A DNA stretch of 64,000 bases from Mobula hypostoma. Taxonomy: Eukaryota. This document shows positions 1,187 to 64,000 of the stretch, piece after piece (position 1 is the first letter of the stretch; each line of letters begins with the position of its first letter). Position numbers and translations under genes: made by a program. The stretch is taken from NCBI RefSeq assembly GCF_963921235.1, contig NC_086108.1, forward strand, positions 66,466,001-66,530,000, given 5' to 3'. The notes beneath the pieces are model-generated. The model saw only the letters and a list, made by a program, of their open reading frames with translations. It was not told where the DNA came from and did not search any database.

Positions 1187-1334
1187 ACTCACAACACGCT
1201 GGAGGAACTCAGCAGGTTTCGGGCCAAAACGTTGACTGTTCGTTTCCACGGATGCTGCCCAACCTGCTGGGTTCCTCCAGCGTGTTGTGAGTGTTGCTTT
1301 GACCCCAGCATCTGCAGAATATTTTGTGTTGAAT
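1187..1334. mobile_element. Short palindromic Penelope-derived element
   Basis: Inverted arms ACTCACAACACGCTGGAGGAACTCAGCAGGTT / AACCTGCTGGGTTCCTCCAGCGTGTTGTGAGT, flanked by direct repeat GTGTGTAAT (1178-1186, 1335-1343). Confidence 0.75.
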
Positions 1335-1526: not shown

Positions 1527-1737
1527 AACACACAAAAAAATGCTGGAGGAACTCAGCAGGCCAGGCAGCGTCTATGAAAAAAAAGTGCAGTCGATGTTTT
1601 GGGCTGAAATGCTTCAGCAGGACTGGAGAAAAAAAGCTGAGGAGTAGAATTAAAATGTGGGGGAAGGGGTGAGAGAAACACCAGATGATAGGAAACCTGG
1701 AGGGGGAGGAATGAAGTAAAGAGCTGGGATGGTGATC
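1527..1737 (-). mobile_element. Penelope-like element 3' end fragment
   Basis: Reverse-complement match to the Penelope end at 10040-10235; degenerate hammerhead-like motif at 1589-1624. Confidence 0.75.
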
Positions 1738-2063: not shown

Positions 2064-2339
2064 TGGGCAACTTCTTTAGTGAGAGGCATACTGACTTCAT
2101 ATTACAAGCTGACGACTTTACATCAGTCCTGGCCCATTGTGATACAAACAGGAAAGGCTGATTATTTGAAAGTATCAGATCCCTAGAACAACATTGTCTC
2201 TCAGTGGAAGATGAGATACTCTTCATGAAGTTTATATGAAAGCCTAATTGAAATAATGAGGGGGAAAAGGCAGAGAAATCAGAGTGAAAGTGGAATGGAG
2301 AATTGAAGTAAAAGGCAACTAGAAGCTCAGGGCCTTCAC

Positions 2340-3980
2340 TCCTCAGTTTCCTTTATTACAGTCCCGCTGCCAAACAAAATACCCTTCCACATATTTCCCA
2401 TGAAGCACAAGCAATCCTGTCCTACCAGACCCATTGATTTTGCTTATTTTTGTCCCACAGAATTTATTTTTCCAAGCTTTATTCTTTTCTTGGTCCAGTC
2501 CCTTCCCACTTAAATCTGATACACTTACGATGTCCTCAATCACTTTGACTGTTTCCAATTTCCTGGTCCCAATCAGTTCACTTTCACCAAAATTCAAAGC
2601 CTTCATTCCACTTCAGAATGGTCTGACATTCCTCCTACTTCTTCCTTGAACAGATACAATCCAGTTCCCTCTGGCCCCACCCTCCCTTCACTTCCCCAAA
2701 ATGGTCATGGAACCAACATCTGGTGTTTCCTGTGGGATACATGGAACAGTCATTGTTTCAGTTCCACTCAGGAACCTTCCCTCATTTCCCTTCAGGTACA
2801 TCAATACTGTAATAGTCTTGTTCTGTCTTTTGCTCTTGGTCAAAACTGAGAAGGTTCACCATTTCCACCAAGCAATCTCTTTTGCATTGTCCATCTGCGG
2901 CTTTTCCTTTCCCTTACTCAACATTTCTATCATCATCACTGGGGATAAAGTACTGATTGATATCCTTGGCAAATGGGTGGACTCTCAAAACTCTCTCACC
3001 TGCAGCTGTTTCCAGCAAGGACTCCATTCCACTCTCCCAATTTCTCTGGCTCCATTGTATCTGTTTACAAACATAAATAATTGTAATTTATATTCTCTAC
3101 TGCTGCCACTAAACAAGACATTTCATGATTTATTGTATGTCAGTGATAATGAACCTGATTCTAATTCTGATTCTGAAATTAATTAAATTAACAAAATCTG
3201 GGTAATAATAATATAATGATAACAATGAAACAGCCAGTAAAACCATTTGTTTCAGGAAGGTCAACAAGGGTAGGAAATTTGCCACTTGTGCCCAGTTTGC
3301 CCTATATTTTAGTCCGGGCCCACCAATGTGATTGATTCTTAAATACCTCTGAAATAGCTAAACAAGCTAGTCAGTTCAAGTTCAGTTAGGAGTGGGTAAT
3401 AACTAGCTTGTCATTGGAATCTTGATCCTGAAAAATGGATTTTTAAAACATGCATTGGGTTCTCATGAAGTGTAGCTGTGCACCATCCTGGAGAAATTTC
3501 ATGCAGAATTGGTGACTACATTGCAGAACCTGTCCATTTAGAACACAAGGATGACCCTGTGCTTCCAGTTACCCATCACTTTAATCTCCATCCCATCTTA
3601 TATCCAACCTTTTTATCCATAATGTCCAACAAAATATATTATGGTCCCTGTACTGTAGGCAAGTTACATTCCCCAGGACTCAAAGCCTTCAACAATTTCA
3701 GATAACCAACATTGCCAGATTATCTTAGAACTGATCAGTTAGGTTATCAAAATTACTTGTAAAATTAACTTACTTTTTACCACTCTCTATTGCACATTTC
3801 CAGCATTTTCATTTATTTTGACTCTTCAGCAACTGCAGTGCTTTGTCTCAACATTATCCTCTTGTTTTCTAACTTTTCCTAGTTCTGAAGAAAGGATAAC
3901 AAACTGAAACATTAACTTGACTTCTCTCTCTGTGCAGTAGATGTTCCCTGACCTGCTAGGCATCTCTGGCATTTCTTCCC
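2340..3980 (+). mobile_element. Highly degraded Penelope-like element (RT and GIY-YIG remnants), interrupted
   Basis: 2732-2810 reads VGYMEQSLFQFHSGTFPHFPFRYIN (Penelope RT YIDD region). 3478-3600 reads GEISCRIGDYIAE...DPVLPVTHHFN (GIY-YIG region). Hammerhead-like motif at 3881-3917. Confidence 0.7.
3065..3178 (+). mobile_element. Rex1/Babar-type 3' tail fragment
   Basis: ...CAGTGATAATGAACCTGATTCTAATTCTGATTCTGA, same tail type as 31770-31811 and 43040-43081. Confidence 0.65.
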
Positions 3981-7045: not shown

Positions 7046-7211
7046 TTAAAATGTAAACACGAGGAATTCTGCAGATGCTGGAAATTCAAGCAACACACAT
7101 CAAAGTTGCTGGTGAACACAGCAGGCCAGGCAGCATCTCTAGGAAGAGGACTGTACCTCTTCCTAGAGATGCTGCCTGGCCTGCTGCGTTCACCAGCAAC
7201 TTTGATGTGTG
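7046..7211. mobile_element. Short palindromic Penelope-derived element
   Basis: 59-bp inverted arms (7091-7149, 7156-7214) with one mismatch. Flanking repeat TTGAGGAAAGTTATT at 7031-7045 and 7212-7226. Arm matches the Penelope terminus at 48855-48906. Confidence 0.85.
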
Positions 7212-8550: not shown

Positions 8551-8611
8551 CTGATGGGGGCGTGTCAGTGGTCAAATGTGTTGGCTCCTCCAGTTCCACA
8601 AGCGATGTGGG

Positions 8612-8790
8612 GCAACACACACAAAATGCTGGAGGACCTCGGCAGGCCAGGCAGCATCTATAGAAAAGAGTAAACAGTCAACCTTTTGGGCTGAGACCCT
8701 TCATCATGGTCCTGACCTGCTGAGTTCCTTCAGCATTTTGTGTATGTTGCCTTGGATTTCTAGCATCTGCAGGTTTTCTCATGTCTGTGA
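8612..8790. mobile_element. Short palindromic Penelope-derived element
   Basis: Arms CAACACACACAAAATGCTGGAGGACCTCGGCAGG / CCTGCTGAGTTCCTTCAGCATTTTGTGTATGTTG; degenerate flanking repeat at 8595-8609 and 8792-8806. Confidence 0.75.
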
Positions 8791-9632
8791 CTCCACAGGT
8801 GATATGTTGGTGGTAGTTGGTCAGAGACTTCTTCAAGTCCTGGTTCAACTCCTGGGATTTTGTTTATGTTTACCAAGGGCTGAGAAACCCGGGCACTACA
8901 CCAGGATACGAGTTGGAATTTCAATGTAAATAGGGCTTGAAATTTCTTATTGAATCTGATGTTCAGGTTTTACTGCCAGTGGCTGAATCTCCGGTACTGG
9001 AGAGATACGATGGCTATAGGCCAGTAAAGAAAAGTGCAGGAAGAGGATCAATATCCTTAAGTCACTAGTAAGAGCAGAAGTGCTGCCTTCCAGCCTTCAC
9101 CATCCTTCACATCAGATTATCCTCAGACCCCCAGCTAAATGAACTTAGTGAAAATCAGTCTCAGATCCCCTAACCCCCAAGATCAGACCCACACTGATTC
9201 AGACCTCTCAGCTGTTGGGAACCAGACTTTCCCCATGTGATAGTGCTCCTTCTACACTCCGGATCTGTGGGTTAATATGACAAATCTTGCAGCTACCCTA
9301 TGGAGGTCCCATCTCAATGGAAATCAAGCCTGTCAGTCAAAGTAGCATCTGAGTGGGGAAACTACTCAGACCAAAGGACGAATGACATGAAATTAAAACG
9401 TATGTGGAAACACATACACCTGGGGGTTTTATTGGAAGCCAAGCTCTATATTCATTCTGGAACTATCCTGGGAACATACAAAACAAGATATTTAATTAGA
9501 CAGCTTGTTTCAGAAAGAAGAACCGAAGAACAGTGTTTTATTTATAATAAAAACAATCTATCAGTTGAAAACTGCAAAGACTTAGTTGGCCATAAAAAAC
9601 TGCCAAAACTACAGTCAAAACCAATCCACAAT

Positions 9633-10232
9633 GCATATCGGTGAGACATGACATAGATTGGGAGACCGTTTCGCTGAGCACCTATGATCTGTCCACCTGA
9701 AAAAGCGAGATCTCCCAGTGGCTACCCATTTTAATTCCACTTCCTATTCCCATTCCGATATGTCAATCCATGGCCTCCTCTACTCTCCCGATGAGGCCAC
9801 ACTTGGATTAGATGAACGACACTTCATATTCCGTTGGGTAACCTCCAACCTGATGGCATGAACATCAACTTCTCGAACTTCCGGTAATCGCCAAGCCCCC
9901 TCGCCGTTCCCCATCCTCTTCTCCCTCTCTCACCTTATCTCCTTGCCTGCCCATCGCCTCCCTCTGATACTCATCCCCCCTTTTCATGGCCTTCTGTTCC
10001 CTCCTGTCAGACTCCTCTTTCTCCAGCCCTGTATCTCTATCACCGATCAACTTCCCAACTCTGTATTTCGTCACTCCTCCTCCTGGTTTCATCTATTACC
10101 TTGTGCTTCTTTCTCCCCTCCCCCCACCTTTTAAAGCTACTCCTCAGCTTTTTTCTCCAGTTCTGCCGAAGGGCTCTGCCTGAAACGTTGACTGTACTTT
10201 TTTCCATAGCTGCTGTCTGGAATGCTGAGTTC
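9633..10232 (+). mobile_element. Penelope-like element 3' part (GIY-YIG C-terminus plus 3' UTR)
   Basis: HIGET*HRLGDRFAEHL...DLPVATHFNS remnant, pyrimidine-rich UTR, hammerhead-like motif at 10159-10193. Confidence 0.85.
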
Positions 10233-10590
10233 CTCCAGCATTTTGTGTGTATAGCTATGAGTTGATAGGTGAAAGAGATAAAGGACTGGAGAAGGGGAAA
10301 TCTGATAGAAGAGGGCAGAAGCCATGGAAGAAAGAGAAGTGGGAGAGGCAGAGGTGATGGGTGGGTAAGGAAGTAAGGGAAACAGGAATGGGGAGTGGTG
10401 AAGGAGTGGGAGGGGTGGCATTGCAGGAAGTTCAGGAAATCGATGTTCATTTCAACATGTTGGAGGCTACCCGAATGGAATGTAAGGTGTTGTTCCTCCA
10501 ACCTCATTGTGGCCTCATCGCGGCAGTAGAGGAGGCCATGGACTGACATGTCAGAATGTGAATGAAAAGCAGAATTGAAATGAGTGCCAA
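10233..10590 (-). mobile_element. Penelope-like 3' fragment, convergent with the previous copy
   Basis: ORF 10040..10663 contains THFNSAFHSHSDMSVHGLLYCRDEATMRLEEQHL, homologous to ORF 49245..49571. Confidence 0.85.
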
Positions 10591-10814
10591 TGATCAGCAG
10601 CCTCATTGTACCATTAAACTTCCAAAAGGAATTCCACCTTTGATGTATCTTGAAAATGGTCATTTACACAACCCATGACTTGCTTAACTAGCAAAAGGAA
10701 CTGCTGATAAGAATGGTACTAAAATGAACAATATACTGAGGAAAAAAAGCAAGTCATACTCAGTTAATAGTCACATTTGTCTGGTACTGCAAGTCTCTTC
10801 CCACTTAATAAACT

Positions 10815-15664: not shown

Positions 15665-16379
15665 TATCCCCATTATGAAAGAAATGGAATATCCACCATG
15701 TGGCAGGGGGGCGGGGGGAAGGCACCATAAAGCCGACCCAAGTGCATCAGCTCAGTTTAGAAGCCATCGGATGCCAAATAACTGCCAGAAAACAACAGCA
15801 CGAAACAGCAGAACACTCGACACAATCGCACACTTACAGTCAAGTGCAAATAAAAAAAGAAATCAAACCAACCCTTCGTGCCTGACAGTTAGTGTATGCA
15901 GCAACTCGGTGGGGAAACAGGGGGTTAATTATGAGAATATACCGGGGAAGACGTTGAAGTGCGTACACTCACTACAATGTCAGTGGAATGGCAAAGCAAT
16001 GTTTCTGTGTGAGTGAATGAATGTGCTTCTGAAAGGAATGTATTTACTGAGTGACCTCCGGCACATAATGTGCCTTCCTTTTAAGACAATCAGAGTGGAT
16101 AACATCACATTATACACATTGTACTGCACTAATTCAAGTACCTGTCCATTGCTTCAACCTGTTGAAATCAATTTATAGTTCTCTTCATCTTGCTGAGAGG
16201 AAAATTCGATTAGCCATGATGAAATGGCGGAGCAGACACGATGGGCCAAATAGCCTAATTCTGTTACAATATCCTATGGTCTTATGCCAATTCTATCAAT
16301 ATCAATGCAAGAAATAATTTCCATTGTCAGGTATAATGCACTGACAATTATTTCTACAAAAACAAAATGGCTCACCTGA

Positions 16380-19146: not shown

Positions 19147-22100
19147 TGTTGTGTATTTAATATTTCAGTAATATTGTAAATATCTTACATGATTACAGGA
19201 TTGTCTTGAGTTAGTAGACAGGGCCTTATTCAATAACTCATCTGAGGACCTGTATAACTACACCAGGGTCATAACAGACTTTATTAAAACAGCTGTTGAT
19301 GAGTGTGTCCCCACAGAATTGTTTAGGTTTTACCCTGATCAGAAACCCTGGATGAACCATGAAATCCAGAATTTGCTAACAGCCTGATCAGAAGCATTCA
19401 AGTCTGGATCAAGAATGCTCCAAGAGGTACAGGTATGATCTCTGGAAAGCCATCTCTTGGGCAAAGTGGAGATTTCAGACAAGACTGGAATCAACAAGGG
19501 ATGTTTGACAATTCTGGCAGGGTTTGAATGCCATAAACTCCTACAAAGTTAAATCTTGTGACAAGGGGGATTGCAGAGCTTCACTTCCAGATGAACTCAA
19601 TTCCTTCTATGCTCAATTTGGCCACAAGAACAGGAAGGACCCATAGTGCATCCCTATATCTCCAGATGATTCTTTGTTCTCAGTATCGGAAGATGTCTTC
19701 AAGAGAGTGAATTTAAAGAAAACATCCAGTCCAGACGGAGTACCTGGCCGAGTACTGAAGACCTGTGCTGACCAAATGGCTGGTGTATTCATAGATAGCT
19801 TCAACCTCTCACTCTGGCAGTATGTGGTACATCACAGCTCCTGGCTGAGTGGCAATTTGGATCTGCTCCGATTTGTCTACTGAAGCAACAGGTCCACAAC
19901 AGATGTTGTCTCAGTGGCTCCTCACACAAAATTCGAAACATCTGGACAGCAAAAATACATGCATCAGGATGCTCTTTATCAATTACAGCTCAGCATTTAA
20001 TACCATCATCCCCTCAAAACCAATCAGTAAACTCTATTATTCCTTGTGCAATTGGATCCTGGATTTACTCACTTACAGATCCCAGTCAGTTCAGATTGGC
20101 AAAAACACCTCCTCCACAATCTCCATCAGCACAGGAGCACCACAGGGATGTGTACTTAGCCCACGCTCTACTCGCTTTACACCTGTGACTGTGGCTAAGT
20201 TCAGCTCCAACACCATGCACAAGTTTGCTGATGACACCATTCTTTTGGGCTGTATCAAAGGGGGTGATGAATCAGCATACAGGAGGAAGATTAATAACAA
20301 CAATCTCTCACTCAATATCAATAAAACCAAGGAACTGATTATGGACTTCAGGAGAGGGAAACCAGAGATCCACGAGCCAGTAATCATTTGAGGATCAGAG
20401 ATGGAGAGGGTCAGTAACTTTAAATTCCTGGTGTCACTATTTCTGAGACCCTGTCCTGGACGTATCATATAAATATAATTGTAAAGAAAGCATGACAGCA
20501 CCTCTACTTCCTTAAGAGTCTGCAGAGATTCAAGATGTCATCAAAAACCTTGGCAAACTTCTATAGATGTGTAGTGGAGAGTGTGCTGACTGGCTGCATT
20601 ATGACTGTTTTGGAATGAGTGAAAGATCCTACAAAAGGTAGTGGATTCAGCCCTTCCATGAGTAAAGCCCTTCCAACCATTGAACACATCTACATGTTAT
20701 GTTGCCATGGAAAAGCAGCATCCATCATCAAAGATCCTCACCAGCAAAGCCATGCTCTTTTCTCACTGCTGCCATCAGGTGGAAGGAACAAGTGCCTCAG
20801 GACTTGCATCACAAAGTTCAAGAACAGTTACTACCCCTCAACCATCAAGCTCTTGAACAAAAGGGGATAACTATACTCATTCAATTTCTGTTGTTCCCAC
20901 AACCGCTGGTCTCACTTTAAGAACTCTTTATCTTGTTATTTCATTCTTGTTATTTACTGCTCTTCATTTCTAGTTTCACATGCACAGTTTGTTGTTCATT
21001 GATCTTGTTTACAGTTTACTGTTCTATGGATTTGCTGAGTATGGATGCAGGAAAAAGAACCTTAGGGTTGTATGTGGTGACATTTATGTACTTTGATAAT
21101 ACATTTTACTTTGAACTTTTGAACCTTGATATTGTTTGATTAAGCTATCTTTGTTGTTTACATAATTCGTGGAATTGCAGAATGTAACAGTGGTGACAAG
21201 GAAGTTTTAAGGTGAACCCAAGATGACTGCCTACCTGTTGAAGTGCAGTGAGATGTTTGAGTAAACAAAAGCACAATGAAACACTGGAGTTTAAAAAAAA
21301 TACAGCATGCTTTCATTGCAAGAGGAGAAAAATGGTCATGTTAAAAAAGGCAGAAAACAGACAAATTTATGGGTTCTTAAACGTTGAGTACTGGTGATAA
21401 TAAGCATAAGTTTAAAATAAAGTTGGATATATCGATAGATGCGTTTGATTGTACAAAAGGTAACCAGAATTTGCATACTGAGTGAATTGAACTGTACTTT
21501 GAAGCAAATGAAACCAACAATGAGAAGCAAGTGCCAGTTTTGTTGAGTGCATTCACTGGAAGAGCACACAGTTTGCTTAGAAGTTTGATTGTTTCAATCA
21601 AACCAGCCGAAATGAGCTTTGCTGATATCTTGAAAGTAAAACTGGAACATTCAGAAATGAAAGCATTCTTTGTGCTTTAGGTTTTATAAGCAGAATCAAA
21701 AGGAAGAGGAGTCCATTTCAGCATATGTGTATGAGTTGAAAAAGTTGTCTGACCATCGTCAGTTCAGTGATGGGCTTAATGATGCATCGCCAGATCATTA
21801 AATTTGGTGAATCTTACAGGAAAGCATTCAAACATGGCTCCTACCTGAAGCACAACTCACAGTTTAAAGAGTAATTGGAATCGCTGTATCAATGGGGACA
21901 GCAGCCAGAGATGAAAATGAGTTGCAGTCAGGAGTGAAAGTGAGTGTGAACAAAATTGTAACATCTAAACAGAGGATATCTTTTTTCAAACCTTTCTGTA
22001 GTAAAACATTTCTGCAAAGTGGGCTTAGCTGAGGCTTACTTATCGATGGATATGGAAGAAGAGTCCAAAGTATTTCTCACTATAAACATAAACAAAGGGC

Positions 22101-22750
22101 TTTATTACTATAATACTTATTTTTGGAATAGCATCTGCACCTGCACACTTGCAGAAAGCTATGGACCAGGTGATGCAAGGCTGACTAGGCACTCAGTGTT
22201 ATATGGATGACATCATTGTTACCAGTAAGGATGACAAGGAGCATCTCCAAAATCTCAAGACAGATTAAAACATTATAGACTCAGAGCATGATGCAACAAA
22301 TGTGAATTCTTTAAATGAATAATCACTTACTGTGGTCACACCATTGACACACAAGTATTACATAAGTGTGCTGAAAAAAATTCAAGCAATGGTGGATGCC
22401 CAAAGCCCAAAGGACATGTCACAGTTGTGGTCCTTTTAGGACTAATCAATTTCTATAACAGCTTCCTGCCAAACCTGTCTACTGTGTTCCATCCCTTGAA
22501 CACATTACTACAGAACGGAAAGAAATGCCAATAGACAAAGCAGTGTGAGGTGGCTTTCAAAAAGCTAAAGAAAATGGTGATGTCAGTCACTGTATTCACA
22601 CATTACGATCCACATCATCCATTGAAGCTTGCCTGTGATGCCTCATCATCTGGTATAGGTGCAGTCATGTCACATGTTATAAGTGATGGATGTGAACACC
22701 CCATAACCTTTGCATCACAATCCCCACCTTGCTGCAGCACAGAAACATTG
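19147..22750 (+). mobile_element. Degraded Gypsy/Ty3 LTR retrotransposon (5' LTR interrupted by Rex LINE; gag, RT and RNase H remnants)
   Basis: LTR-like TGTTGTG...(insertion)...AATGTAACA followed by PBS-like GTGGTGACAAGG at 21190. gag remnant IELYFEANE..NEKQVPVLLSA at about 21486-21552. RT LAEAYL...FLTIN..KGLY and CYMDDIIVT at about 22197. RNase H LKLACDASSSGIGAVMSHV (ORF 22550..22783). Confidence 0.85.
19191..21129 (+). mobile_element. Rex1/Babar LINE remnant
   Basis: [58 protein letters not shown]-type repeated tail. Confidence 0.92.
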
Positions 22751-25435
22751 CACACATTAACAATTCCCCTTTCTCTTTCTTGACTATATATCTCTTCCCC
22801 AGGTGTGACAAAAGCTATTTAGGCTTTTTTTGCTCTAGAAATTGGATAAGGCAAACATGTAATCACTGAAAATCACTGAATTGAATTTCCTCTAACCAAC
22901 AATGCACCTTGTAATGGCTTAAGATAATATTTGAACCTCCTGTCCACTTTTATCCCATAAATTTAAATCATTTTGCATTTATGTAAAGAGAAAAAATGCA
23001 CTTAATGACTAGGTTATAAGCAAACCCTTTAACAACTGTTGGAATTCTGTTTTATGTGAGTTTATGAGTTCATTTTGATTCCCTCTGTAGCATTCATTTA
23101 TTAGATTATCTACAACTCCTGAGTTTGCAGGTTCCAGGATTTTCCTTTGTGGCTTCATCTGCATAATAACAATCTCATCTAGTGACCTCAGTGGTTACCT
23201 TGATTAGTGTGCACAGTGCTTGGTTGTCTAAACATTCAATTTTGCCCACTCCAATGAATAATCAGCAACAGCCTGTTTCATACTGGGTAATTGAGGATAA
23301 GCAGGTCAATTAAAGGACAGGAGGTCGAGTCTTTCATTTTGTCTGTATACCTTACTATACCACTGGCAGAATCCATTACTATTGGTGAATCTACTGTACT
23401 TTATTGTAGAAGGGGTTTAATATATTTGTCTATCTGCAGAGAAACATAAGAAGGAATTGACTTTACATATCATCTCAGAAAATGTAAGGAACTGCAAAAT
23501 GATTGAGAAAGTTGGTCCATACATAAAGCGTCAAAGTCCAAGAATATTGTAGTTAGTTTTACATGCAGTATTTTAAAATGGATATCCAAGTATCATCTAT
23601 AAGTCAATCAGGCAATATTTTAACTGCTTTATACAAAGTCTATGTGAGTTATGGATGCTTCTGCATAATTGAATATCAATCATTATTTTTATTGAAGAAA
23701 AATATTCAAACCAAGGCACCACGTACTTCAGGTACAAGGATGTTTGGGATCATGAGTGAGAGCGTGATGAAGAATACATACAAAAGAATTTGGTAAATGA
23801 TGATGTTCTTTATGAAAAGAGGAAGTTGAATATTTTGAATTGTTTGACAGGATTTACATTATGGTTTTTATTTAGACTTTATAATGAGTGAATTCCACCT
23901 GGGATGGGATATGTGTGTTATTCTTACTTTCACAAATTTGTATTATTTCCTTTAAATTTTGTATTTGTTATACAAAACCTACATGACAAATTGAAATCCC
24001 CAAAACTCACAAGTGGGATCATTAGCATGCAATATTATTATCTAACGTTGAGTAGCATTTGGAGTTTATTACCATAAGCCCATTGTCCATGCTCACTGAT
24101 CGGGGTCACCTCCCTCCCAAATTACCTCATATAAATCTGAAAAGCAGACCTGCTTTGCCAAACATTTCAAGAATTGGCTAATTAGGGCCTCAGAAGTGGA
24201 AAGGCCTCAATGCCTCTGACATTCTAAGGTACATAACATAGTGCTAAAAATTAAATAAAATCTTAAGTCCATATTAAGCCATTATAAATTACTTCAAATA
24301 GAAATAAAATTAAAAATAATTCTATGTAATTAAAAACGCTAAAGGAAAAAAAAAGGAAAAGAATTTGCCTTATTCCTCTGCTTCTACAATCTTACAAACT
24401 ATTGAAATCCATGAACTTGCAGAGCCTATAGTAATGAATTTAAAACATGCAGTCTGGCCATTAAATAACGGCTTTGCATCATTCACTGAAGTTTGTCGCT
24501 AGAAGATGATATCAAGAGCTTGTTTGTTGCTGATAATTAAATGTGAAGCTAAATGTCACTCTAGACAAGCTTATTATGAAGAGAGTTTTAATAAAATGTG
24601 TTATTAATCAGAAGTGTATTCCTTTGTGTGAGGTGCAAATACACATCAAAGATTTAGATGTCCTCATTGTTCAGCCAACAACTAACCCCTGACATCATCA
24701 TTACATTTGATGTCAAAAGGCTGCTAACAATCTCTCAAAAGCAGGTAATAGCTTCAGGTCACAACTTAGATCAGCAGCTGGATGTTCACTAATGCAGTGG
24801 ACTTTGACATAATTTAATCTGTAGCTAAACTACCACAGAAAGATCCACCAAAGATCCATAAAGATCCATACATGCAGAACTTCTCGATTTGTTGTAATTT
24901 TATAACATATTAATGTCCTAATTTATTCATAAGCAAAACACAAAAATATAAATGCTGAAGGAGAGGTGACTGTTTCCGAGTTTTTCTGAAAGTGTGGAGG
25001 AGCCTAGAATTTGTTGATTGCTGTCAATGTATCTTTGAAACTTATCCTATTGTTGGCCAGACTATTTATTCGTAACAATTATACATTATGGGATTTAATT
25101 ATACATGTAAAATTTTGTGTCTATTGCACATAGTAACCAGTGAACTATCAAATATACAATACGGATTCGTAGTATTGTTATTATACAGACAACAGACATT
25201 CAACCCATCCAAGTAGAGAAATACAAGTAGAATGGATGAGTGTGTGCCTACAAGGACTTACAGTACATTCACAAACCAAAAGCCATGGATGAACCAGGAG
25301 ATATGTCATCTGCTGAAAGCTGGAGCTGTGGCATTGAAGTCTGGTGACCCAGGCCTGTACTAGAAAAACAGATATGATTTGTAGAGGGCTATTTCAAGGG
25401 CAAAGAGACAATTTTGAATGAGGTTGGAGGCAGTG

Positions 25436-28400
25436 TGAGAGGGAGGATAGGCAAGTGAAAGAGAAGGGATGTGCTGAGACAGATGGTTTGAGATGTGTCT
25501 ATTTTAATGCAAGAAGCGTCATGAACTAAGCAGATGAGATTAGAGCATGAATCAGTACTTGGAGATATGATGTGGTGGTCATTACTGAAACTTGGATGGC
25601 TCAGAAGCAGGAATGGTTACTTAGAGTGCCAGGCTCACATGTTTCAGAAAAGTCAGGAAGGGGGGCAAAAGAGGCAGGGGCGTGGCATTGCTAATCAGAG
25701 ATAGTGTCACGGCTGCAGAAAAGAAGGAAGTCAGGGAGGGATCGTCTACTGAGTCTCTGTAGGTGCAAGTTTGAAACAGGAAGGGGTCAATAACTCTACC
25801 GAATCTTTTTTATAGACCACCCAATAGTAACAGGGACAGCGAGGAGCAGATAAGAAGACAGATTCTGGAAAGGTGTAATAATAACAGGGTTGCCTTAGTG
25901 GGAGATTTTAATTTCCCAAATATTGATTGGCATCTTCCTCGAGCAAGGGGTTTAGATGAGGTGGAGTTTGTTAAGTGTGTTCAGGAAGGATTCCTGACAC
26001 AATAGGTGGATAAGCCTACAAGAGGAGAGGCTGCACTTGAACTGGTATTGGGAAATGAACCTGGTCAGTTGTCAGATCTCTCAGTGGGAAAGCATTTTGG
26101 AGATAGTGATCACAATTCCATCTCCTTTGCCATAGCATTGGAGAGGGACAGGAACAGACAAGTTAGGAAAGCACTTAATTGGAGTAAGGGGAAATATGAG
26201 GCTAGCAGGCAAGAACTTGGAAGCATAAATTGGGAAATTTGTTCTCAGGGAAATGTATGGGAGAAATGTGGCAAATGTTCAGGGGATATTTGCGTGGAGT
26301 TCTACATAGGTACATTCCAATGAGACAGGAAAAGTACGGTAGGGTACAGCAACTGTGGTGTACAAAGGCTGTTGTAAATCTAGTCAAGAAGAAAAGAAGA
26401 GCTTACGAAAGGTTCAAAAAACTAGGTAATGATAGAGATCTAGAATATTATAAGGCTAGCAGGAAGGAGCTTAAGAAAGAAATTAGGAGAGCTAGATAGG
26501 GCCATGAGAAAGCCTTGGCGAGCTGGATTGAGGAAAATCCCAAGGCATTCTATAGGTATGCGAAGAGCAAGAGGATAAGACGTGAGAGAATAGGACCGAT
26601 CCAGTGTGACAGTGGAAAAGTGTGTAGGGATCCAAAGGAGATAGCAGGCATATTTAATGAACACTTTGCTTCAGTTTTCACTGCGGAAAAAGACCTTGGC
26701 GATTGTAGGGATAACTTACAGTAGATTGAAAAGCTTGATCATATAGATATTAAGAAAGAGGATATGCTGAAGCTTTTGGACCAGATGATATCTACCCCAG
26801 GCTACTGTGGGAGGTGAGGGAGGAGATTGCTGAGCCTCTGACAATGATCTTTGCATCATCAATGGGGACGGGAGAGGTTCTGGAGGATTAGAGAGTTGCA
26901 GATGTTGTTCCCTTATTCAAAAAAGGGAGTAGAGATAGCCCAGGAAATTATAGACTAGTGAGTCTTACTTCAGTGGTTGCTAAGTTGATGGAAAAGATCC
27001 TGAGAGGCAAGATTTATGAACATTTGGAGTGGAATTTATGAACATTATGTCAGCATGGCTTTGTTAAAGTCAGGTTGTGTCTTACGAGCCTGATTGAATT
27101 TTTTGAGGATGTGATTGAACACATTGATGAAGGTAGAGCAGTAGATGTAGTGTATATGGATTTCAGCAAGGCATTTGATAAGGTACCCCATGCAAGGCTT
27201 ACTGAGAAAGTAAGGAGGCATGAGATCCAAGGGGACCTTGCTTTGTGGATCCAGAAATGGCTTGCTCACAGAAGGCAAAGAGTGGTTGTAGGTAGGTCAT
27301 ATAATTCATGGAGGCCGGTGACCAGTGGTGTGCCTCAGGGATCTGTTCTGGGACCCCTACTCTTCATGATTTTTATAAATGACCTGGATGAGGAAGTGGA
27401 GAGATGGGTTAGTAAATTTGCTGATGTACTAAGGTTGGGGGTGCCCTGCATAGAGTTGAGGGCTGTCAGAGGTTACAGTGGGACTTCGATAGAATGCAAA
27501 ACTGGGCTGAGAAGTGGCAGATGGAGTTCAACCCAGATAAGTGTGAAGTGGTTCATTTTGGTAGGTCAAGTATGATGGCGGAATATAGTATTAATGGTAA
27601 AACTTTTGGCAGTGTGGAGGATCAGAGGGATATTGGGATCTGAGTCCATAGGACACTCAAAGCTGCTGTGCAGGTTGAATCTGTTGTTAAAAAGGCATAC
27701 GGTGCATTAGCCTTCATCAACCATGGGATTGAGTTTAAGAGCCGAGAGGTAATGTTGCAGCTATAGAGGGCCCTGGTCAGGCCCGCTTGGAGTACTGTGC
27801 TCAGTTCTGGTCACCTCACTACAGGAAGGATGTGGAAACTATAGAAAGGGTGCAGAGGATATTTAAAAGGATGCTGCCTGGATTGGGCGGCATGCCTTAT
27901 GAGAATATGTTGAGTGAACTTGGCCTTTTCTCCTTGGAGCAGTGGAGAATGAGAGGTGACCTGATACAGTTGTATAAGATAATGAGAGGCATTGATCGTG
28001 TGGATGGTCAGAGGATTTTTCCTAGGGCTGAAATGACTAAAACAAGAGGGCACAGTTTTCAGGTGCTTGCAAGTAGGTACAGAGGAGATGTCATAGAAAC
28101 CACAGAAAAACTACAACACAGAAACAGGCCTTTTGGCCCTTCTTGGCTATGCCAAACTATTTTCTGCCTAGTCCCACTGACCTGCACACGGACCATATCC
28201 CTCCATATACCTCCCATCCATGTATCTGTCCAATTTATTCTTAAATGTTAAAAAAGAACCTGCATTTACCACCTTGTCTGGCAGCTCACTCCATACTCCC
28301 ACTGCTCTCTGTGTGAAGAAGCCCCCCCTAATGTTCCCTTTAAACTTTTCCCCCCTCACCCTTAACCCACGTCCTCTGGTTTTTTTCTCCCCTTTCCTCA

Positions 28401-29695
28401 GTGGAAAAAGCCTGCTTGCATTCACTGTATCTATACCCATCATAATTTTATATACCTCTATCAAATCTCCCCTCATTCTTCTACGCTCCAGGGAATAAAG
28501 TCCTAACCTATTCAACCTTTCTCTGTAACTGAGTTTCTCAAGTCCTGGCAAAATCCTTGTAAACCTTCTCTGCACTCTTTCAACCTTATTAATATCCTTC
28601 CTGTAATCTGGTGACCAAAACTGAACCTAATACTCCAGATTCAGCCTCACCAATGCCTTATACAACTTCATCATAACATTCCAGCTCCTATACTCAATAC
28701 TTCGATTAATAAAGGCCAATGTACCAAAAGCTGTCTTTACGACCCTATCTACTTGTGATGCCACTTTTAGGGAATTTTGTATCTGTATTCCCAGATCCCT
28801 CTGTTCTACTGCACTCCTCAGTGCCTTACCATTTACCCTGTATGTTCTACCTTGGTTTGTCCTTCCAAAGAGCAACACCTCACACTTGTCTGAATTAAAC
28901 TCCATCTGCCATTTTTCAGCCCATTTTTCCAGCTGGTCCAAGTCCCTCTGCAGGCTCTGAAAACCTTCCTCACTGTCCACTACACCTCCAATCTTTGTAT
29001 CATCAGCAAATTTGCTGATCCAATTTACCACATTATCATCCAGATCATTGATACAGATGACAAATAACAACGGACCCAGCACTGATCCCTGTAGCACACC
29101 ACCAGTCACAGGCCTCCACTCTGAGAAGCAATCCTCTACTACCACTCTTTGGCTTATTCCATTGAGCCAATGTCTAATCCAATTTACCACCTCTCCATGT
29201 ATACCTAGTGACTGAATTTTCCTAACTAACCTCCCATGCGGGACCTTGTCAAAGGCCTTACTGAAGTCCATGTAGACAACATCCACTGCCTTCCCTTCAT
29301 CCACTTTCCTGGTAACCTCCTCGAAAAACTCCAATAGATTGGTCAAACATGACCTACCATGCACAAAGCCATGTTGACTCTCCCTAATAAGGCCCTGTCT
29401 ATCCAAATGCTTGTAGATTCTGTCTCTTAGTACTCCCTCCAATAACTTACCCACTACCGACGTCAGGGGTAAGATTTTTACTCAGAGAGTGGTGTGTGCA
29501 TGGAATGGGCTGCCAGCAACAGTGGTGGAGGCGGATATGATAGGGTCTTTTAAGGGACTCCTCGATAGGTACATGGAGCTTAGAAAAATAGAGGGTTATG
29601 GGTAACCTTAGGTAATTTCTAAGTAAGTACATGCTCAGCACAGCATTGTGGGCCGTAGGGCCCATATTGTGCTGTAGATTTTCTATGTTTCTATG
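25436..29695 (+). mobile_element. Near-complete CR1 ORF2 (APE endonuclease plus RT), disrupted and split by an antisense CR1
   Basis: LRCVYFNARS, ITETW, YRPPNS, GDFNFP, GDSDHN endonuclease motifs; RT ORF 27075..27575; resumes at about 29459 to a TTCTATGTTTCTATG tail. Confidence 0.92.
28093..29458 (-). mobile_element. Younger 5'-truncated CR1 inserted antisense into the previous CR1
   Basis: ORFs 28627..29454 and 28168..28575 on the minus strand (QHGFVHGRSCLTNL, FADDTKIGG, RGDLIEVYKIM). Confidence 0.95.
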
Positions 29696-30622: not shown

Positions 30623-31814
30623 TCATCGACTATAGCTCAGCATTTAAGACCATTACTCCCGCAATCCTGATTGAGAAGTTGCAGAACCTGGGCCTCTGTA
30701 CCTTCCTCTGCCATTGGATCCTGGACTTCTTAAGCGGAAGACCACAATCTGTGTGAGCTGGTGAAAACATATCCTCCTCGCTGACGATCAATACTGGCAC
30801 ACCTCAGGGGTGTGTGCTTCGCCCACTGCTCTACTCTCTATATACACATGACTGTGTGGCTCAGCACAGCTCATTTGCTGATGATACAACCATTGTTGGT
30901 AGAATCTCAGATGGTGATGAGAGGGCGTACAGGAGTGAGATATGCCAACTAGTAGAGTGGTGCCACAGCAGCAACCTGGCACTCGACATCAGTAAGATGG
31001 AAGGGGTGATTGTGGACTTCAAGAAGGGTAAAACAAAGGAACACATACCAATCCTCATGGAGGGAATCAGAAGTGGAGAGAGTAAGCAGTTTCAAGTTCC
31101 TCGGTGTCAAGATCTCTGCAGATCTAACCTGGTCCCAACATATTGATGCAGTTATAAAGAAGGCAAGGCAGTGACTATACCTCATTAGGAGTTTGAAGAG
31201 ATCTGGCATGTCAACACATACACTCAAAAACTTCTATAGTTGTACCCTGGAGAGCATTCTGACAGGCTGCATCACTGTCTGGTATGGAGGGGTTACTGCA
31301 CAGGACTGAGAGAAGCTGCAGAGGGTTGTAAATCTAGTCAGCTCTATCGTGGGTATTAGCCTACAAAGTACCCAAGACATCTTCAAGGAGCGGTGTCTCA
31401 GAAAGGCAGCATTCATTATTAAGGACCTCCAGCACCCAGGGCATGCCCTTTTCTCACTGTTACCATCAGGTAGGTGACACAGAACCTGAAGGCACACACT
31501 CAACGATTCAGGAACAGCTTCTTCCCCTCTGCCATCCAATTACTAAATGGACATTGATTCCTTGGACACTACCTCACTTTTTTAAATATACAGTATTTCT
31601 TTTTTTTGCATGTTTTTAAAAAAAAATCTATTCAATATACATATTCTCTAATTGATTTACTTGTTTATATAGTATTTTTAAAATTTTACTTATTTTTTAT
31701 TCTCTCTCTGCTAGATTGTGTATTGCATTGAACTGCTGCTGCTGAGTTAACAAATTTCATGTCACATGCCAGTGATAATAAACCTGGTTCTGATTCTAAT
31801 TCTGATTCTGATAT

Positions 31815-33080: not shown

Positions 33081-33879
33081 CTAGAAACAAGCAAAAAAAG
33101 AAATGGCTGGAAGAACTCAGCAGGCCAATTAGCATCTTTGAAGACAAAGGGATAATGCTGATTTAGGTCCAGATGCTGTATCATGTCTCATGCTTCCATC
33201 GTGATCTACTCTATATGGAGCCCAAATGTGGATTCAATTACTGTTTTGTGGAATATGCCTGGTGAACATAAGCATAATTCCAAGCAGCTACTAAACTGTC
33301 ATTTAAATCTCCACCCTACTCTACTTGCACATCACTGTTTTAGCATTGAAGATTATTCCAATAAATCTCAAATAACCTGGACAAGTAGGGCCTTGTATTT
33401 AGATGATAGACATTACTGGTTCCTGCACTGAACATTGAGTTCAAGGAAATGAGTAAAGTTGTTCAACATAAAGAAAAAAGCATCTTTTAAAGTTCAGTGC
33501 TGTAAGTCCAATGCAATTAATATGAAACCAATAAGTCTACTCAAAATGTGAAGTAAATAGGAAAAATTAAGTGCCCACATTATCCATGAAACTGAAATGA
33601 ATATGAAATAGAGCAGAAACATTTTCAGAAAATCATCATTAAGATCTTTAAAAGCACAATTTCTGAAATTAAATTCAACATTTAATAACATCACCAGCAG
33701 TAAGAAGTCTGGCAAACAAGTATGAAAATGATGAAATATGAAATGAAGAATACAGCTGTGAATGGGCAAGATTATTCTTACCACTCATCCCACAGAGGCA
33801 ACCTCTCAAACAAAGATATTTCGAGGAAAATCAATGACATTTTCATAAATTAGATGGGTCAGAGACAAGCTAATTAGGC

Positions 33880-45989: not shown

Positions 45990-47290
45990 TTCATAGAACA
46001 TAGAAAATAGAAATCTGCAGCACAGTAAAGGCCCTTCAGCCCATGATGTTGTACTGACATTTTAACCTACTCTGTCAGTCTAATCCTTCCCTCCCACAGA
46101 GCCCTGCATTTTTCTTTTATCCTTATGTCTATCTAAATGTTTCTCAAATGCACCTAATGTATCTGCCTCTACCACCACTGCTGGTAGGGTGTTTCATGCA
46201 CCCACCACTCTTCCATGTAAAAAAAAATCTTCTGATATCCCCCCTCCCCCCCAGTATACTTTCCTCCAATCATCTTAAAATTGTCCCTTTTCAAATTAGC
46301 CATTTCAACCCTAGGAAATATTTTCTAGCTACTCACTCAATCTGCGCCTTTTATTACTGTGTACATCTCTATCAAGTCATCTCTCATTCTCCTTCACTCC
46401 AAAGAGAAAAGTCCCAGCTCACTCAAACTATTCAAAGATTCAGAAAGATTCAAAACACATTTATTATCTAAGAATGTATACATTAATAAACCTTGAGATT
46501 TGAGATTCTCCTAAAACATGCTCTTTAATCCAGGCAGCATCCTGGTAAATCTACCCTGCACCTCTCCAAAGCTTCCATATCCTCCCTATAAAGAAAGAAC
46601 CAGAATGGAACACAACATTCAAAGTGGACCTAAGCTGGATATTATTGAGCTGCAGATCTTAAACTCAATCCCCTGACTAATGAAAGACAATACACCATAC
46701 GCCTTTTTAACCACCCTCTGTTTGCGCGGCAACTTTGAGTTATCTCTGTTACTCCACATTGCTAAGAACCCTGCGATTAAACCTGTATTCTTCCTTCAGA
46801 TCTGACCTTCCAAAGTGAATCACTTACATAAACACAAGAGATGCTGCAGATGCAGGAAATCCAGAGCAACACATACAAGATGCTGGAGGAGCTCTGCAAG
46901 TCAGATATCATCTAAGGAAATGAATAAGCAGTCAACGTTTTGTCCCAAAACGTCGACTATTTGTTCATTTCCATAGATGCTGCCTGACCTGCTGAGTTCC
47001 TCCAGCATTTTGAAAATGACTCACTTTTCCAGGTTAAATTCCAACCACCACTTCTCAGCCCAGCACTGTATCTTGTCAATGCCCTATTGTAATCTATGAC
47101 AAATTTATACACTATCCACAACCCCAACAAACTTCACATCATCTGCAAATTTACTAATTCACTCATTCGTTTCATCATCCAAGTTACTTATTAAAAATCA
47201 CAATAAGCAGAGGTCCCAGAACAGATCACTGCTGAACACCACTGGTCACTGAACTCTAGGCAGCAAAATCCTCCATCTGCAGACACTGTC
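45990..47290 (-). mobile_element. Degraded CR1 3' portion with small nested insertions
   Basis: CATAGAACATAGAAA tail, antisense FADD at about 47137-47148, palindromic element at about 46828-47013. Confidence 0.8.
46828..47013. mobile_element. Short palindromic Penelope-derived element
   Basis: Leader AAACACAAGAGATGCTGCAGATGCAGGAAATCC, then arms ATGCTGGAGGAGCTC / GAGTTCCTCCAGCAT; centre deleted. Confidence 0.75.
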
Positions 47291-47960: not shown

Positions 47961-48854
47961 AACACTCAACTGCTCGGTCAAGACCAGGTCAGTCACTTGT
48001 GCAGTAGTGCTTCCCCAGCGCCAATGAACAGGCTCAATGATAAGCTTGTCTCTTGGAAGGAATATTTCAACACTTTCAGATAAAATAGCTACTTGTAGTA
48101 GATAAAATAACATGCTTGAACATCCATGCATTGGTTCCTGCACAATTATCTCTGAATCTTTCTCTTGTTCTGTATCCTTGCCTCTTTGTAAACTTATGTG
48201 CAATTCCATTCCTCTACCTTTTTCCCTTTAATTTCTGTGTGCATCTCTATTTCAAAATTTTCACTCTAATTTTGTTCCGTATGTTACGCAGCTCAAAGTG
48301 TATGTAAGTCTTCTGATAACTAACTTGCTAAGAAGTTTATTTTTGTTTCAAAATTTATTCAATATTTAATATTAAAAATACATAAAGTATCAATTCACTG
48401 GGAGCAGTATCATTGAGTTCAGACTAAAGTTCCTGGTTTCATTGCTCACTGATGCCCTTATGTTACTGTCCTTTCTTCTGAAATAAACAAAAAGAAGAAT
48501 CATATGTAATCTATAATATTATGTAATTGTAGTTGAACTAAAATGATTATCTTTAGTAGTGCTCTATACAGAGACATTCATACAGCTAGTAGTGCTCGCT
48601 TCACAGTTCCAGTAACCCAAATTCAATGCTAACCTCTGGTACAGTTTATGTGGAGTTTGGCTCTTTGCCCAGTGATTTCCGCATACCAAAGACTTGTGGG
48701 TTGGTCAGTTGTTAATTGACCAATGTAAATTTCCCCTGGCGTGTAGGTGAGTGGTAGCATTTGGGGAGAATTGATGGGAATATGGGAAGAATGGAATAGG
48801 ATAAGTATTAAGGTACTTGATGATTTGCATGGAGTTCCTGCACCAAAGAAACTA

Positions 48855-49953
48855 CATCAAAGTTGCTGGTGAACGCAGCAGGCCAGGCAACATCTATAGG
48901 AAGAGGTACAGTCGACGTTTCGGGCCGAGACGCTTTGTCAGGACTAACTGAAAGAAGAGCTAGTAAGAGATTTGAAAGTGGGAGGGGGAGGGGAGATCCG
49001 AAATGATAGGAGAAGACAGGAGGGGGAGGAATGGAGCCAAGAGCTGGACAGGTGATTGGCAAAAGGGATGTGAGAGGATCATGGGACAGGAGGCCCAGGG
49101 AGAAAGAAAAGGGGGAGAGGGGGAAAATCCCAGAGGATGGGCAAGGGGTATAGTGAGAAGGACAGAGGGAGAAAAAGGAGAAAGAGAGAAAGAATGTGTG
49201 TATATGAATAAATAACGGATGGGGTACGAGGGGGAGGTGGGGCATTAGCGGAGGTTTGAGAAGTCAATGTTCATGCCATCAGGTTGGAGGCTACCCAGAT
49301 GGAATATAAGGTGTTGTTCCTCCAACCTGAGTGTGGTTTCATCTTTACAGTAGAAGAGGCCGTGGATAGACATATCAGAATGGGAATGGGACGTGGAATT
49401 AAAATGTGTGGCCACTGGGAGATCCTGCTTTCTCTGGCGGACAGAGCGTAGGTATTCAGAGAAATGATCTCCCAGTCTGCATCGGGTCTCACCAATATCT
49501 AGAAGGCCACATCGGGAGCTCCGGACGCAGTATATCACCCCAGCTGACTCACAGGTGAAGTGTCGCCTCACCTGGAAGGACTGTCTGGGGCCCTGAATGG
49601 TGGTAAGGGAGGAAGTGTAAGGGCATGTGTAGCACTTGTTCCACTTACAAGGATAAGTGCCAGGAGGGAGATCAGTGGGGAGGGATGGGGGGGACGAATG
49701 GACAAGGAAGTCACGTAGGGAGCGATCCCTGCGGAAAGCAGAGAAGGGGGGGAGGGAAAGATGTGCTTAGTGGTGGGATCCCGTTGGAAGTGGTGGAAGT
49801 TACGGAGAATAATATGTTGGACCCGGAGGCTGGTGGGGTGGTAGGTGAGGACAAGGGGAACCCTATTCCTAGTGGGGTGGCGGGAGGATGGAGTGAGAGC
49901 AGATATGCGTGAAATGGGGGAGATACATTTGAGCGCAGAATTGATGGTCTTCG
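48855..49953 (-). mobile_element. 5'-truncated Penelope-like element with GIY-YIG endonuclease remnant
   Basis: ORF 49245..49571 FTCESAGVIYCVRSSRCGLLDIGETRCRLGDHFSEY; AAGAAACTA duplicated at 48846-48854 and 49954-49962. Confidence 0.92.
48910..48945 (-). ncRNA. Minimal type I hammerhead-like motif (decayed) in the Penelope end
   Basis: AGTC-CTGACAA-A-GCG-TCTCGG-CCC-GAAAC-GTC-GACT; core G8 and one helix II pair are mutated. Confidence 0.6.
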
Positions 49954-50634
49954 AAGAAACTATGTCTGTGCTGCATAACTCAATGGTATTCTATTACGTG
50001 ATGAGACATGAAAAAGAAATCGCGAAAAGGGAGAATTGGACATAATGCAGAAAGGGTGGAAGGTGACAAAAGGAAAAAACCTTCCTGAGCTTATTCAGTT
50101 TTGTCAAATGTGGGTACTGGCAGCTGACACGTGTACAGTAAGTTTACGTGAACACTAAATAAGAGCAAATTGTGCGAAATTTTTAATGCAGCCAAAAATT
50201 CCTTCTTTTCTTTAATCAGTGATTTGGTGAAAGAAAATGTAAGAATTCCAATTCCTATTAAATGGATAAAGAAGTCAGAGGTGAGCTGAAGCAATGATGA
50301 GTCAATCACTTTTGACCCAGAATCTGATTCAAGCTCATTCCAGAGAATTGTACAAATAGTCTCTGTGAGTATTTCTGTGTATCACCAAGAGAGGATCATG
50401 TTTTCAAAGGTGCTATAATTTGGAATATACAGTAAATATTGGCCTCAGCTATGTTCACAGATTCTGCAGCAAATATGAGGAGCAATGGGGGAGTTCTCTT
50501 TAGATTTGGAAAATAAATTCTCACTCATCGAAAATATAAACTGAATGACCTGGTGATTTGTTTCCTTGATATTTGTGACAGCATCTTATAGACAATTAGG
50601 CAATTGATTAAAATATTGTCTGCAATAAAAAAAT

Positions 50635-60039: not shown

Positions 60040-60720
60040 CGGATGACAGAAAATGGTGGAAATATTCTCCAGATCTAACAGCACTAGTAGAATGTGAAAC
60101 AGTGCTAACATTTTGGGTCGAAGACCCTTCGTCAAAACTGGGAAAGAGTAAAAGCAAGTTGCTATTAATTTGGAGACAGAGTGTGTGGTGGAATTTCAAA
60201 GGAAATGACTGACAGGGTGAATCTGGGATAAGCTGTAAATAAGATCACCTGGTCAGTCGGTTATTAGGGGCAGTGAGAGAGGAGGAGTATGGTCCTTCGC
60301 TGTGGAACACCTGCGTTCATTTGGCAGGGGTGACTCGGAGCTTCTGGTTGCTTGACGCTGTAATTCTCCAAGCCACTCCCACTCCCACCCATCTTTCTAT
60401 GGCCACCTACATTGCTAAAACTTGAGGAACAAAGCGTTATCGTCCATCTGAGCTTCCAGACTCAACATGAAATTCTACATAGATAACTTACTTTCTCTGT
60501 TTGCATTAGAATGGTGCGCATCATCTGTGATACTGGCTCAGTTTTTGTCTCTCCATTAGCACAACCTGGCCTAACTGGTATGTCCTGTATCCTGCATTTC
60601 ACAACTTCAGTGCATAGAAAAGGGAAGCAAAGGGATAGTCGAGACCCTACATCTAGATCGCCTCCGACCTGAACTGTTGATTTCTCATCCCGCTAAGTAG
60701 TTCCAGCATTTCGTCGTTTT
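60040..60720. mobile_element. Degraded Penelope-derived fragments in both orientations
   Basis: Antisense hammerhead-like TTTTGGGTCGAAGACCCTTCGTCAAAACT at about 60111-60139; plus-strand LLVA*RCNSPSHSH...KLEEQSVIVHL remnant. Confidence 0.55.
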
Positions 60721-61802: not shown

Positions 61803-62032
61803 CAATCACAAACAAGAGATATCTGCAGATGCTGGAAATCCGAGCAACACACACAAAATGCTGAAGGAACTCAGCAGGCCAGGCAACATCTATGGACAAG
61901 AGTGCAGTCGACGTTTCGGACCGAAACCCGCAGAGAGTCCTGCCGAAGGGTTTCGGCCCGAAACGTCGTCTGTACATCTTTCCTAGATACTGCCTGGCCT
62001 CCTGAGTTCCTCCAGCATTTTGTAGCTGTAAA
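61803..62032. mobile_element. Palindromic Penelope-derived element retaining the hammerhead-like centre
   Basis: Arms about 61852-61929 and 61948-62023; TCGACACGCC direct repeat at 61793-61802 and 62033-62042. Confidence 0.85.
61936..61971 (+). ncRNA. Minimal hammerhead-like motif with CUGCCGA core variant
   Basis: AGTC-CTGCCGA-A-GGG-TTTCGG-CCC-GAAAC-GTC-GTCT. Confidence 0.6.
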
Positions 62033-62728: not shown

Positions 62729-64000
62729 GTGATTGTTATCGCGTTGCACACTTAATTAGATTTGGAGATGCAATAGATTACCAATGCTCGAGTCCGAAGC
62801 AACAAACAATCTGATGCAAAGTTTCTACCTGAAAAGTTGACATTTCCTACCCCCCCCCCCACCCCCGTCGAGTAAATTTTGTCCATTTTACTCTGGTATT
62901 CTGATTCCATTTCTCGATTGCCAACGTTTGGGTCGTCTACATTTTAAAGATATCCAAACTGCGCATCAAACATGATCTTGTTTTCGGAAATTTCTTTCCG
63001 CAAGGAAACTACGCTCAGCCCGCGTTTTGGTTGTCAATTAAAATTCTTTCCTTCCCTTAAAGCATTCAGTGTGCCCAGTGGCACCGAATTTTTAGCTCGG
63101 CATCACCTCGTATGTTAGTACTTTGTAGCTCATTACTCATGTTGACTTATTGTTCTATGATTTCATTTTTATCAGGTCATGCCAAATATCATAACTTCCG
63201 TATCATTTTGCAGAATTCGTTAATCTGTACTAAGAACCATAAGCGCTACTTCTAAAATTTATGAATTAACCCGTCATTGAGTGTGCAAGGAGTTTTAATT
63301 CTGCATTCTGAGTTTACTGTATGTTGTTCTGTCGAATCCATCAATGAAAATCTATTAACTTCAGAAAAAAAGCTTGGATGTGCGCCATGTCTCATATATT
63401 GCAGCACATAATTTTTCAATATAGAAATCTGTTTTGACCTCCGAAACAATTATGACAAATGATTAATATGCTTTCCACTAGCAAGCCGCCTCAAATACCA
63501 GTTTCAGGGTGGCGAGTTCCCTGCCACAAACACGTACACTTCCATATGCTTGTGGTTAAACTAACCAGCCGTACTAGATCTGGTAAGCGGCTACATATCA
63601 CGTAACGTTGATATATACAAGGAAACGAAAGTGTTTTAAGTATTTCAGACTCATTAGTTAGTGTTCTGCCGGTGTTTTGGGACTCTGGGCGAATTAGACA
63701 ATGTGACGTGCTTAGAAGGGACTTTATTACCCTTCCAGCTAATCGCCTTGACTGGAATTTTATTAGCCGCACAACCTTGACGTTACCTGGTAACAGTTGA
63801 GTTCAGGTGATAAGATGGAAGGGCTAATGGGTTTTGTACGTCAGTCAGGGCTATTGAAACGGATTATACAGCAGATCTGTAAATCCAGGGCGGAGAACAA
63901 AAATTACAATTTTCCATTGATTCTGGAGATGAGAGCCAAGGCATACATTAGAAGATCCTTCAGCAGAGAGAATATTATAATTAAAGGTGGCCTCTGTGCG

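Follow-up and report, generated by a model that had tools for sequence, protein, structure and literature searches.

Minimal hammerhead motifs at the 3' ends of Penelope-like insertions in the ray Mobula hypostoma

The insertion and the motif copies

The locus is a 5'-truncated Penelope-like insertion within a window (the whole stretch of DNA analysed) of 64,000 nucleotides (Table 1). It is bracketed by a perfect 9-bp target-site duplication (TSD; 48846-48854 and 49954-49962) and was truncated before the core of the reverse transcriptase (RT). The remaining open reading frame is damaged: there is a frameshift near 49745-49760, YIG is read as DIG and one Cys is lost. A hammerhead motif lies in sense orientation 300 nt behind the stop codon of this endonuclease remnant.

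Table 1. Coordinates of the insertion, its motif and the related copies in the window
Feature	Position	Strand	Remarks
Two-armed head-to-head insertion	1187..1334		Tail on one arm; 9-bp TSD
Motif copy	1589..1624	-	A6>C, G12>A, broken helix II
Divergent motif copy	3881..3917	+	Whole core; palindrome and helix II broken
Two-armed insertion	7046..7211		Perfect 15-bp TSD
Two-armed insertion	8610..8791		TSD 12/15
Additional copy, beyond the six listed earlier	8675..8712	-	Inversion junction cuts helix I
Motif copy	10159..10193	+	A6>C, U2.1.G1.1 and G10.1.U11.1 wobbles, 1-nt deletion
Additional, heavily decayed copy, beyond the six	33152..33189	-
Two-armed insertion	46826..47012		Turns within helix II; TSD 12/14
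5'-truncated Penelope-like insertion holding the 48945 motif	48855..49953	-	1,099 bp
Minimal hammerhead motif	48910..48945	-	Departures: G8>A, G10.2>C
Helix I of the 48945 motif	48945-48942/48913-48910	-
Core C3-A9 of the 48945 motif	48941-48935	-
Helix II of the 48945 motif	48933-48922	-
G12-A15.1 of the 48945 motif	48921-48918	-
Predicted cut of the 48945 motif	between 48914 and 48913	-
Pyrimidine-rich 3' UTR, stop codon to hammerhead	48946..49244	-
End of the element's open reading frame	49245..49957	-	RT thumb/linker, CX4CxxC zinc-finger linker, GIY-YIG endonuclease
Divergent motif copy	60103..60139	-	C3>U, G12>A, helix I shifted
Two-armed insertion	61803..62029		TSD 12/13
Motif copy	61936..61971	+	A6>C, one helix I mismatch; in one arm of a two-armed insertion
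Marginal additional copy of complete length	62806-62843	+

The endonuclease remnant has 85% identity to a protein of Mobula and 67-85% to nine other ray and skate proteins, resembles proteins of Hypanus, and matches 3,571 representative proteins at E ≤ 0.001. Among seven long relatives scanned, six have an RT followed by a C-terminal GIY-YIG domain and one has GIY-YIG only, with all but one of these GIY-YIG matches falling under Pfam's GIY-YIG cut-off. The CX2-5CxxC linker is likewise present in full-length relatives. Protein-guided locus searches in three collections confirmed no locus. The endonuclease was also found inside the ray and skate gene models P0003, P0004, P0007 and P0011, named as a kinase-domain protein, mucin-2, a chitinase-domain protein and a neuromedin-U receptor, which is likely annotation spill-over from intronic copies.

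The first-pass annotation had listed six hammerhead-like motifs with a common layout, and all six are present at the positions and on the strands given in Table 1 (48945, 61936, 10159, 1624, 3881 and 60139), laid out as described. It had also taken all six to be Penelope ends. For 48945 and 10159 this holds directly through their endonuclease remnants, as the 10159 motif lies 270 nt behind a second remnant (9628-9890); the two copies thus have the sense-strand pseudo-LTR location, 270-300 nt behind the endonuclease. The 1624 and 61936 copies are tied to the element by a shared 3' UTR or terminus; the 3' UTR of 1624 is 82% identical to that of 10159, and both are 68-75% identical to that of the 48945 copy. 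For 3881 and 60139, the sole evidence is 57-75% identity of the 3' terminus.

Two further remnants lie near these copies. At 9635-10597 two endonuclease-bearing copies stand tail to tail, the minus copy ending in the 3' UTR at about 10260 and lacking the motif. A Penelope-type RT remnant (2274-2612, plus strand, E 1e-8) is found on the same strand 1.3 kb upstream of the 3881 motif and is a candidate for part of the same insertion.

The window was scanned with a descriptor consisting of the core, a 4-bp helix I, a 3-bp helix II, one extra base after A9 and two bases between A15.1 and U16.1. No perfect site was found in the 64 kb, in agreement with the earlier statement that every copy departs from the canonical motif (Table 1), and 3881 is the only one of the six with a whole core. 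When at most one core mismatch and at most one unpaired helix cell were allowed, four sites were found, all within the six, where 12 dinucleotide shuffles averaged 0.42. Two core mismatches gave 11 sites versus 4.4 in shuffles, and with two unpaired cells in addition the excess was gone (26 versus 24).

The count of 'at least six' copies holds as a minimum but is too low, since an iterated nucleotide profile of the motif and 3' terminus gave 21 matches in the window, 15 of them at E < 1e-4 (the profile includes its own matches; the best score over 20 shuffles was 8.1 bits). At E < 0.3 covariance model R1 returned nothing but the nine copies it was trained on, among them 8675-8712, 33152-33189 and 62806-62843, so that the window gave no second hammerhead family unrelated to this one. 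The proposed check against the Rfam hammerhead models came back negative, with no hammerhead family among 26 matches to the window at E ≤ 10. As Rfam hammerhead models include helix III, this absence is expected. Exact-pattern scans for the motif or terminus gave 0 matches in viral contigs, 0 in metagenome contigs and none in plasmids; a 21-mer match in one bacterial contig was dismissed as chance.

Family majority, helices and core variants

Public contig records were aligned on 48850-48975 at 80% likeness (35,297 in X1, which may be the window's own organism, and 2,941 in X15); none aligned from X21 or X22. The resulting percentages are depth summed over contigs, not copy counts, and are biased to the subfamily of the reference. 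G8 was restored in 78% (X1) and 97% (X15) of depth and G10.2 in 94% (X1) and 99.5% (X15). Fourteen variant rows fall within the motif: nine CpG transitions, these two reversions and three minor ones (4-5%). No variant row of ≥ 4% occurred at C3, U4, G5, A6, A9, A13, A14, A15.1 or U16.1. As both departures revert and the core sites are quiet, the majority has a complete canonical core, as implied by the earlier proposal that the family consensus is a putatively active ribozyme. Its letters give the full CUGANGA/GAAA/UH core, G10.1-C11.1, the extra A, the ACGU palindrome and the GUC cut site. The quiet core sites reflect the source sequence rather than selection on the copies, given that non-CpG sites beyond the motif are for the most part just as quiet.

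Helix III had been described as a bare ACGT with no loop. The palindrome without loop III is present in the majority and in three of the six window copies; in the other three it is not ACGT. Across nine aligned window copies, 76% of helix cells are paired, versus 20-43% in slid controls, under a structure derived from the same nine sequences. Helix I had been said to covary, and C2.1-G1.1 is indeed replaced by U-A in two of the nine aligned copies (3881 and 60139, the two most divergent). This may be a real subfamily change, one side of which is a CpG site; G1.1>A is also a product of CpG decay (11.5% in X1). Covariation on the nine window copies did not rise above shuffles: of 500, 52 reached its score and 253 the number of pairs changed on both sides. 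Helix II differs in sequence between copies, as had been noted, and the variants amount to one wobble-to-Watson-Crick change and one length difference.

With two majority letters set, helices I and II form in folding at pair probabilities of 0.66-1.0; both helices, G10.1-C11.1 and the extra base after A9, all traits of minimal hammerheads, were found. In nearest-neighbour folding of the majority 38-mer monomer, G5-G8 prefer to pair off-pathway with C15.2-C17 (P 0.98-1.0). The cofold minimum is -34.1 kcal/mol, and at -16.7 the catalytic dimer lies far above it. These models take no account of tertiary contacts. Such folding agrees with a dimer whose cleavage would need help.

A6>C, a transversion outside CpG, is found in three (61936, 10159 and 1624) of the eight copies whose core can be read. 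For this one site to have changed three times independently, the chance would be approximately 0.0004-0.006 at an assumed rate of 2-5%. The C6 letters are also the loose-end consensus of 10 X15 contigs at 48935. The presence of C6 in three copies, the shared 3' UTR and the X15 loose end point to a C6 source subfamily, from which, to judge by these sequences, the letter was likely inherited. C6 makes up < 4% of X1 and X15 records aligned through that site, where a C6 record differs from the mutated reference at three of seven bases and clipping may hide it. The type of 3' terminus failed to separate C6 from A6 copies, and translated motif frames in mis-called proteins, used as an A6 versus C6 readout, gave nothing.

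In silico, C6 abolishes the blocking G5-G8/C15.2-C17 pairing (P from ~1.0 to ≤ 0.14). In other hammerheads A6C is reported to reduce Mg2+ cleavage by orders of magnitude and to favour Mn2+ (PMC7151607, PMC3088659). The hammerhead of phage Bcep176 shares its core A6>C with the three window copies (PMC3088659, PMC7151607); it is described there as a single phage ribozyme with full helices, whereas here C6 is a variant of a motif putatively of the dimer type, carried by a retroelement of a vertebrate. Fig. S3 of PMC4209133 lists 56 motifs, all without C6, nor was C6 found in the literature searched for Penelope hammerhead core variants; supplements to a bioRxiv preprint may bear on chondrichthyan motifs. 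That a ray Penelope sublineage spread with a C6 core, losing the self-blocking pairing while Mg2+ catalysis was weakened, is a speculative and quite unlikely reading. If true, two ribozyme states (A6 and C6), both natural and massively amplified, would coexist in the genome, and comparison of A6 and C6 copies for copy success, insertion shapes and cleavage would be a direct test of the need of Penelope for the ribozyme.

A further core variant, C11.1>U (48922), was seen in 26% (X1) and 40% (X15) of depth, with its CpG partner G12>A at 10% and 4%. It likely marks a subfamily with a G10.1.U11.1 wobble.

Two-armed insertions and 5' ends

Five short insertions are each made of two element 3' ends joined head to head, and only one arm of each bears a tail, of 35-45 nt (Table 1). 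TSDs of 9-15 bp were found around all six insertions tested. Insertions of this two-armed kind, with a TSD and a tail on one side, are known for Penelope-like elements (PMC3846280, PMC8557442, PMC11167929), and the inverted truncated partner, tail and TSD of endonuclease-bearing Penelope-like elements are all present here. No more than about 60-95 nt separate the motif from the main 3' end. Because a motif so near the 3' end would enter most truncated insertions, even very short ones, its abundance calls for no selection on the copies.

Cleavage by the ribozyme as the event that sets 5' ends is unsupported, as only one of ten arms starts at the cut site; the others start from about -37 to +31, with three start positions made uncertain by the palindrome. 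Nor was there support for a conserved stem-loop in the tail (z -0.31, with a positive covariation term).

The plus arm of the young insertion at 7046..7211 begins at the predicted cut site (7149), with a 1-nt ambiguity, in what is a single case. Rfam microRNA matches at 7091-7214 correspond to this palindromic insertion and are all under the gathering score. In practice, short palindromic insertions produce false microRNA-precursor matches.

Known elements, proposed mechanism and alternatives

Minimal hammerheads (min-HHR) of metazoan Penelope-like elements were described by Cervera & De la Pena (2014; PMC4209133). Shared with them are the type I form, the lack of loop III, the palindromic 15.2-16.2, the extra base between 9 and 10.1, G10.1-C11.1, a short helix I, a U-rich 5' flank and a place in a pseudo-LTR, mostly on truncated copies. 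The majority layout fits the > 80% consensus of Fig. S3 in that paper (U-rich flank, CUGANGAH, G10.1-C11.1 and palindrome), and its Acropora Neptune and Ixodes entries have an identical CUGACGAA core with C-G-U-C. Helix II is 4 bp here, compared with 5-8 bp in many members listed there. Cartilaginous fish are absent from the 56 motifs of Fig. S3, and the listed examples of a class known across animals since 2014 (PMC4209133) are now extended to them. Literature searches on Penelope in Hypanus and, judged by title or passage, on hammerhead ribozymes in shark retrotransposons found nothing on this motif.

A CX2-5CxxC linker before the endonuclease is a mark of Neptune and Nematis, and Neptune elements have a C-terminal GIY-YIG after this linker together with an inverted truncated partner, tail and TSD (PMC8557442), all as seen here. 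Neptune-type placement of the ray element is likely, the one basis being the linker motif, which Nematis shares. In the Anolis carolinensis Poseidon element PAc, the motif is also just upstream of two alternative ends with a 30-40 nt tail between them. PAc belongs to the Penelope/Poseidon clade, whereas the ray element has the Neptune/Nematis zinc-finger linker (Frangieh et al. 2024, PMC11167929). Protein-assisted cleavage is a feature of PAc (PMC11167929); the ray motif is known from sequence. Non-LTR retrozymes, reported in one chondrichthyan genome too, similarly carry type I hammerheads from Penelope pseudo-LTRs (bioRxiv 10.64898/2026.07.22.740005). They are head-to-tail tandem arrays there, whereas the window copies are single or head to head; self-comparison of the window showed dispersed and head-to-head copies only, with no head-to-tail tandem hammerhead units.

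Very probably, the motif belongs to the minimal type I hammerheads and sits in the 3' pseudo-LTR of a Penelope-like retrotransposon that bears an endonuclease and is likely of Neptune type. On this reading the copies in the window are by-products of retrotransposition, mutated and likely dead. The sense position behind the endonuclease, the TSDs and the canonical majority core bear out the earlier identification as a Penelope-type minimal type I hammerhead and, together with the CpG-dominated variation, count for this explanation. The folding minima, the single arm in ten at the cut site, C6 in three copies and the non-significant covariation count against it.

In tandem RNA of the source element, each of two tandem pseudo-LTRs would bring one motif, and strand exchange between the two motifs by way of the ACGU palindrome would build helix III. 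The dimer would cut after GUC, between C17 and G1.1. The cut would be slow, probably taking place only once the element's own protein refolds the RNA. Minimal motifs are reported to show no monomer cleavage and low dimer or trimer cleavage (PMC4209133), and the Anolis motif is described as cleaving only with its protein and as dispensable for insertion in vitro (PMC11167929). Reverse transcription would likely begin about 60 or 100 nt downstream of the cut site, two 3' ends having been seen; in the Anolis element it starts at two internal sites, which define the tail (PMC11167929).

Alternatively, the motif may derive from a hammerhead and no longer need to cut, being kept as a protein-bound RNA handle or carried as a passenger. 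C6 in three of the eight readable copies, two with a shared 3' UTR type, implies that a source spread with a weakened core. In addition, insertion in vitro by Anolis ribozyme mutants is reported to be unaffected, with no reads ending at the cut site (PMC11167929), and whole clades lacking the motif still proliferate (PMC8557442). However, the majority has a complete core. This core recurs in all 56 representatives of Fig. S3 in PMC4209133, except for C3>U in three, which is hard to explain without catalysis in the cycle. A motif freed from cutting is rather unlikely.

It is very improbable that individual dispersed copies are working ribozymes in host transcripts, acting in cis between neighbours or in trans. 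The family is very dense and present in X15 (2,941 records), a run guessed to be RNA, but X15 may be DNA. The window also contains no perfect motif, copies that neighbour each other closely are on opposite strands, head to head, and no host exon was recognised among 130 ORFs scanned against Pfam. Chance resemblance of one repeat consensus to a hammerhead is barely credible: all copies are homologous and so represent one event, there is no Rfam match and covariation is not significant, but eleven core letters are fixed, and these, the two helices, the base added after A9, G10.1-C11.1 and the palindrome are all placed as in PMC4209133, in the pseudo-LTR of an element class known to carry such hammerheads. 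With its very high copy number and its core variants (C6, U11.1), the family lends itself to the study of what the ribozyme does in the Penelope cycle.

Other repeats were also found in the window. Remnants of LINE-type RT and endonuclease lie at 16345-17576, 19849-20391, 25775-26002, 27042-27575 and 30757-31146 on the plus strand and at 28627-29481 on the minus strand, and 10917-11879 is a 95% copy of 17358-18235. A short remnant of the RNase H-like domain of an LTR-type reverse transcriptase is present at 22535-22780 (plus strand). A separate 67-bp inverted repeat (374-440) scores as a false microRNA precursor and starts a repeat with a second copy (390-810 versus 11905-12316, 75% identity).
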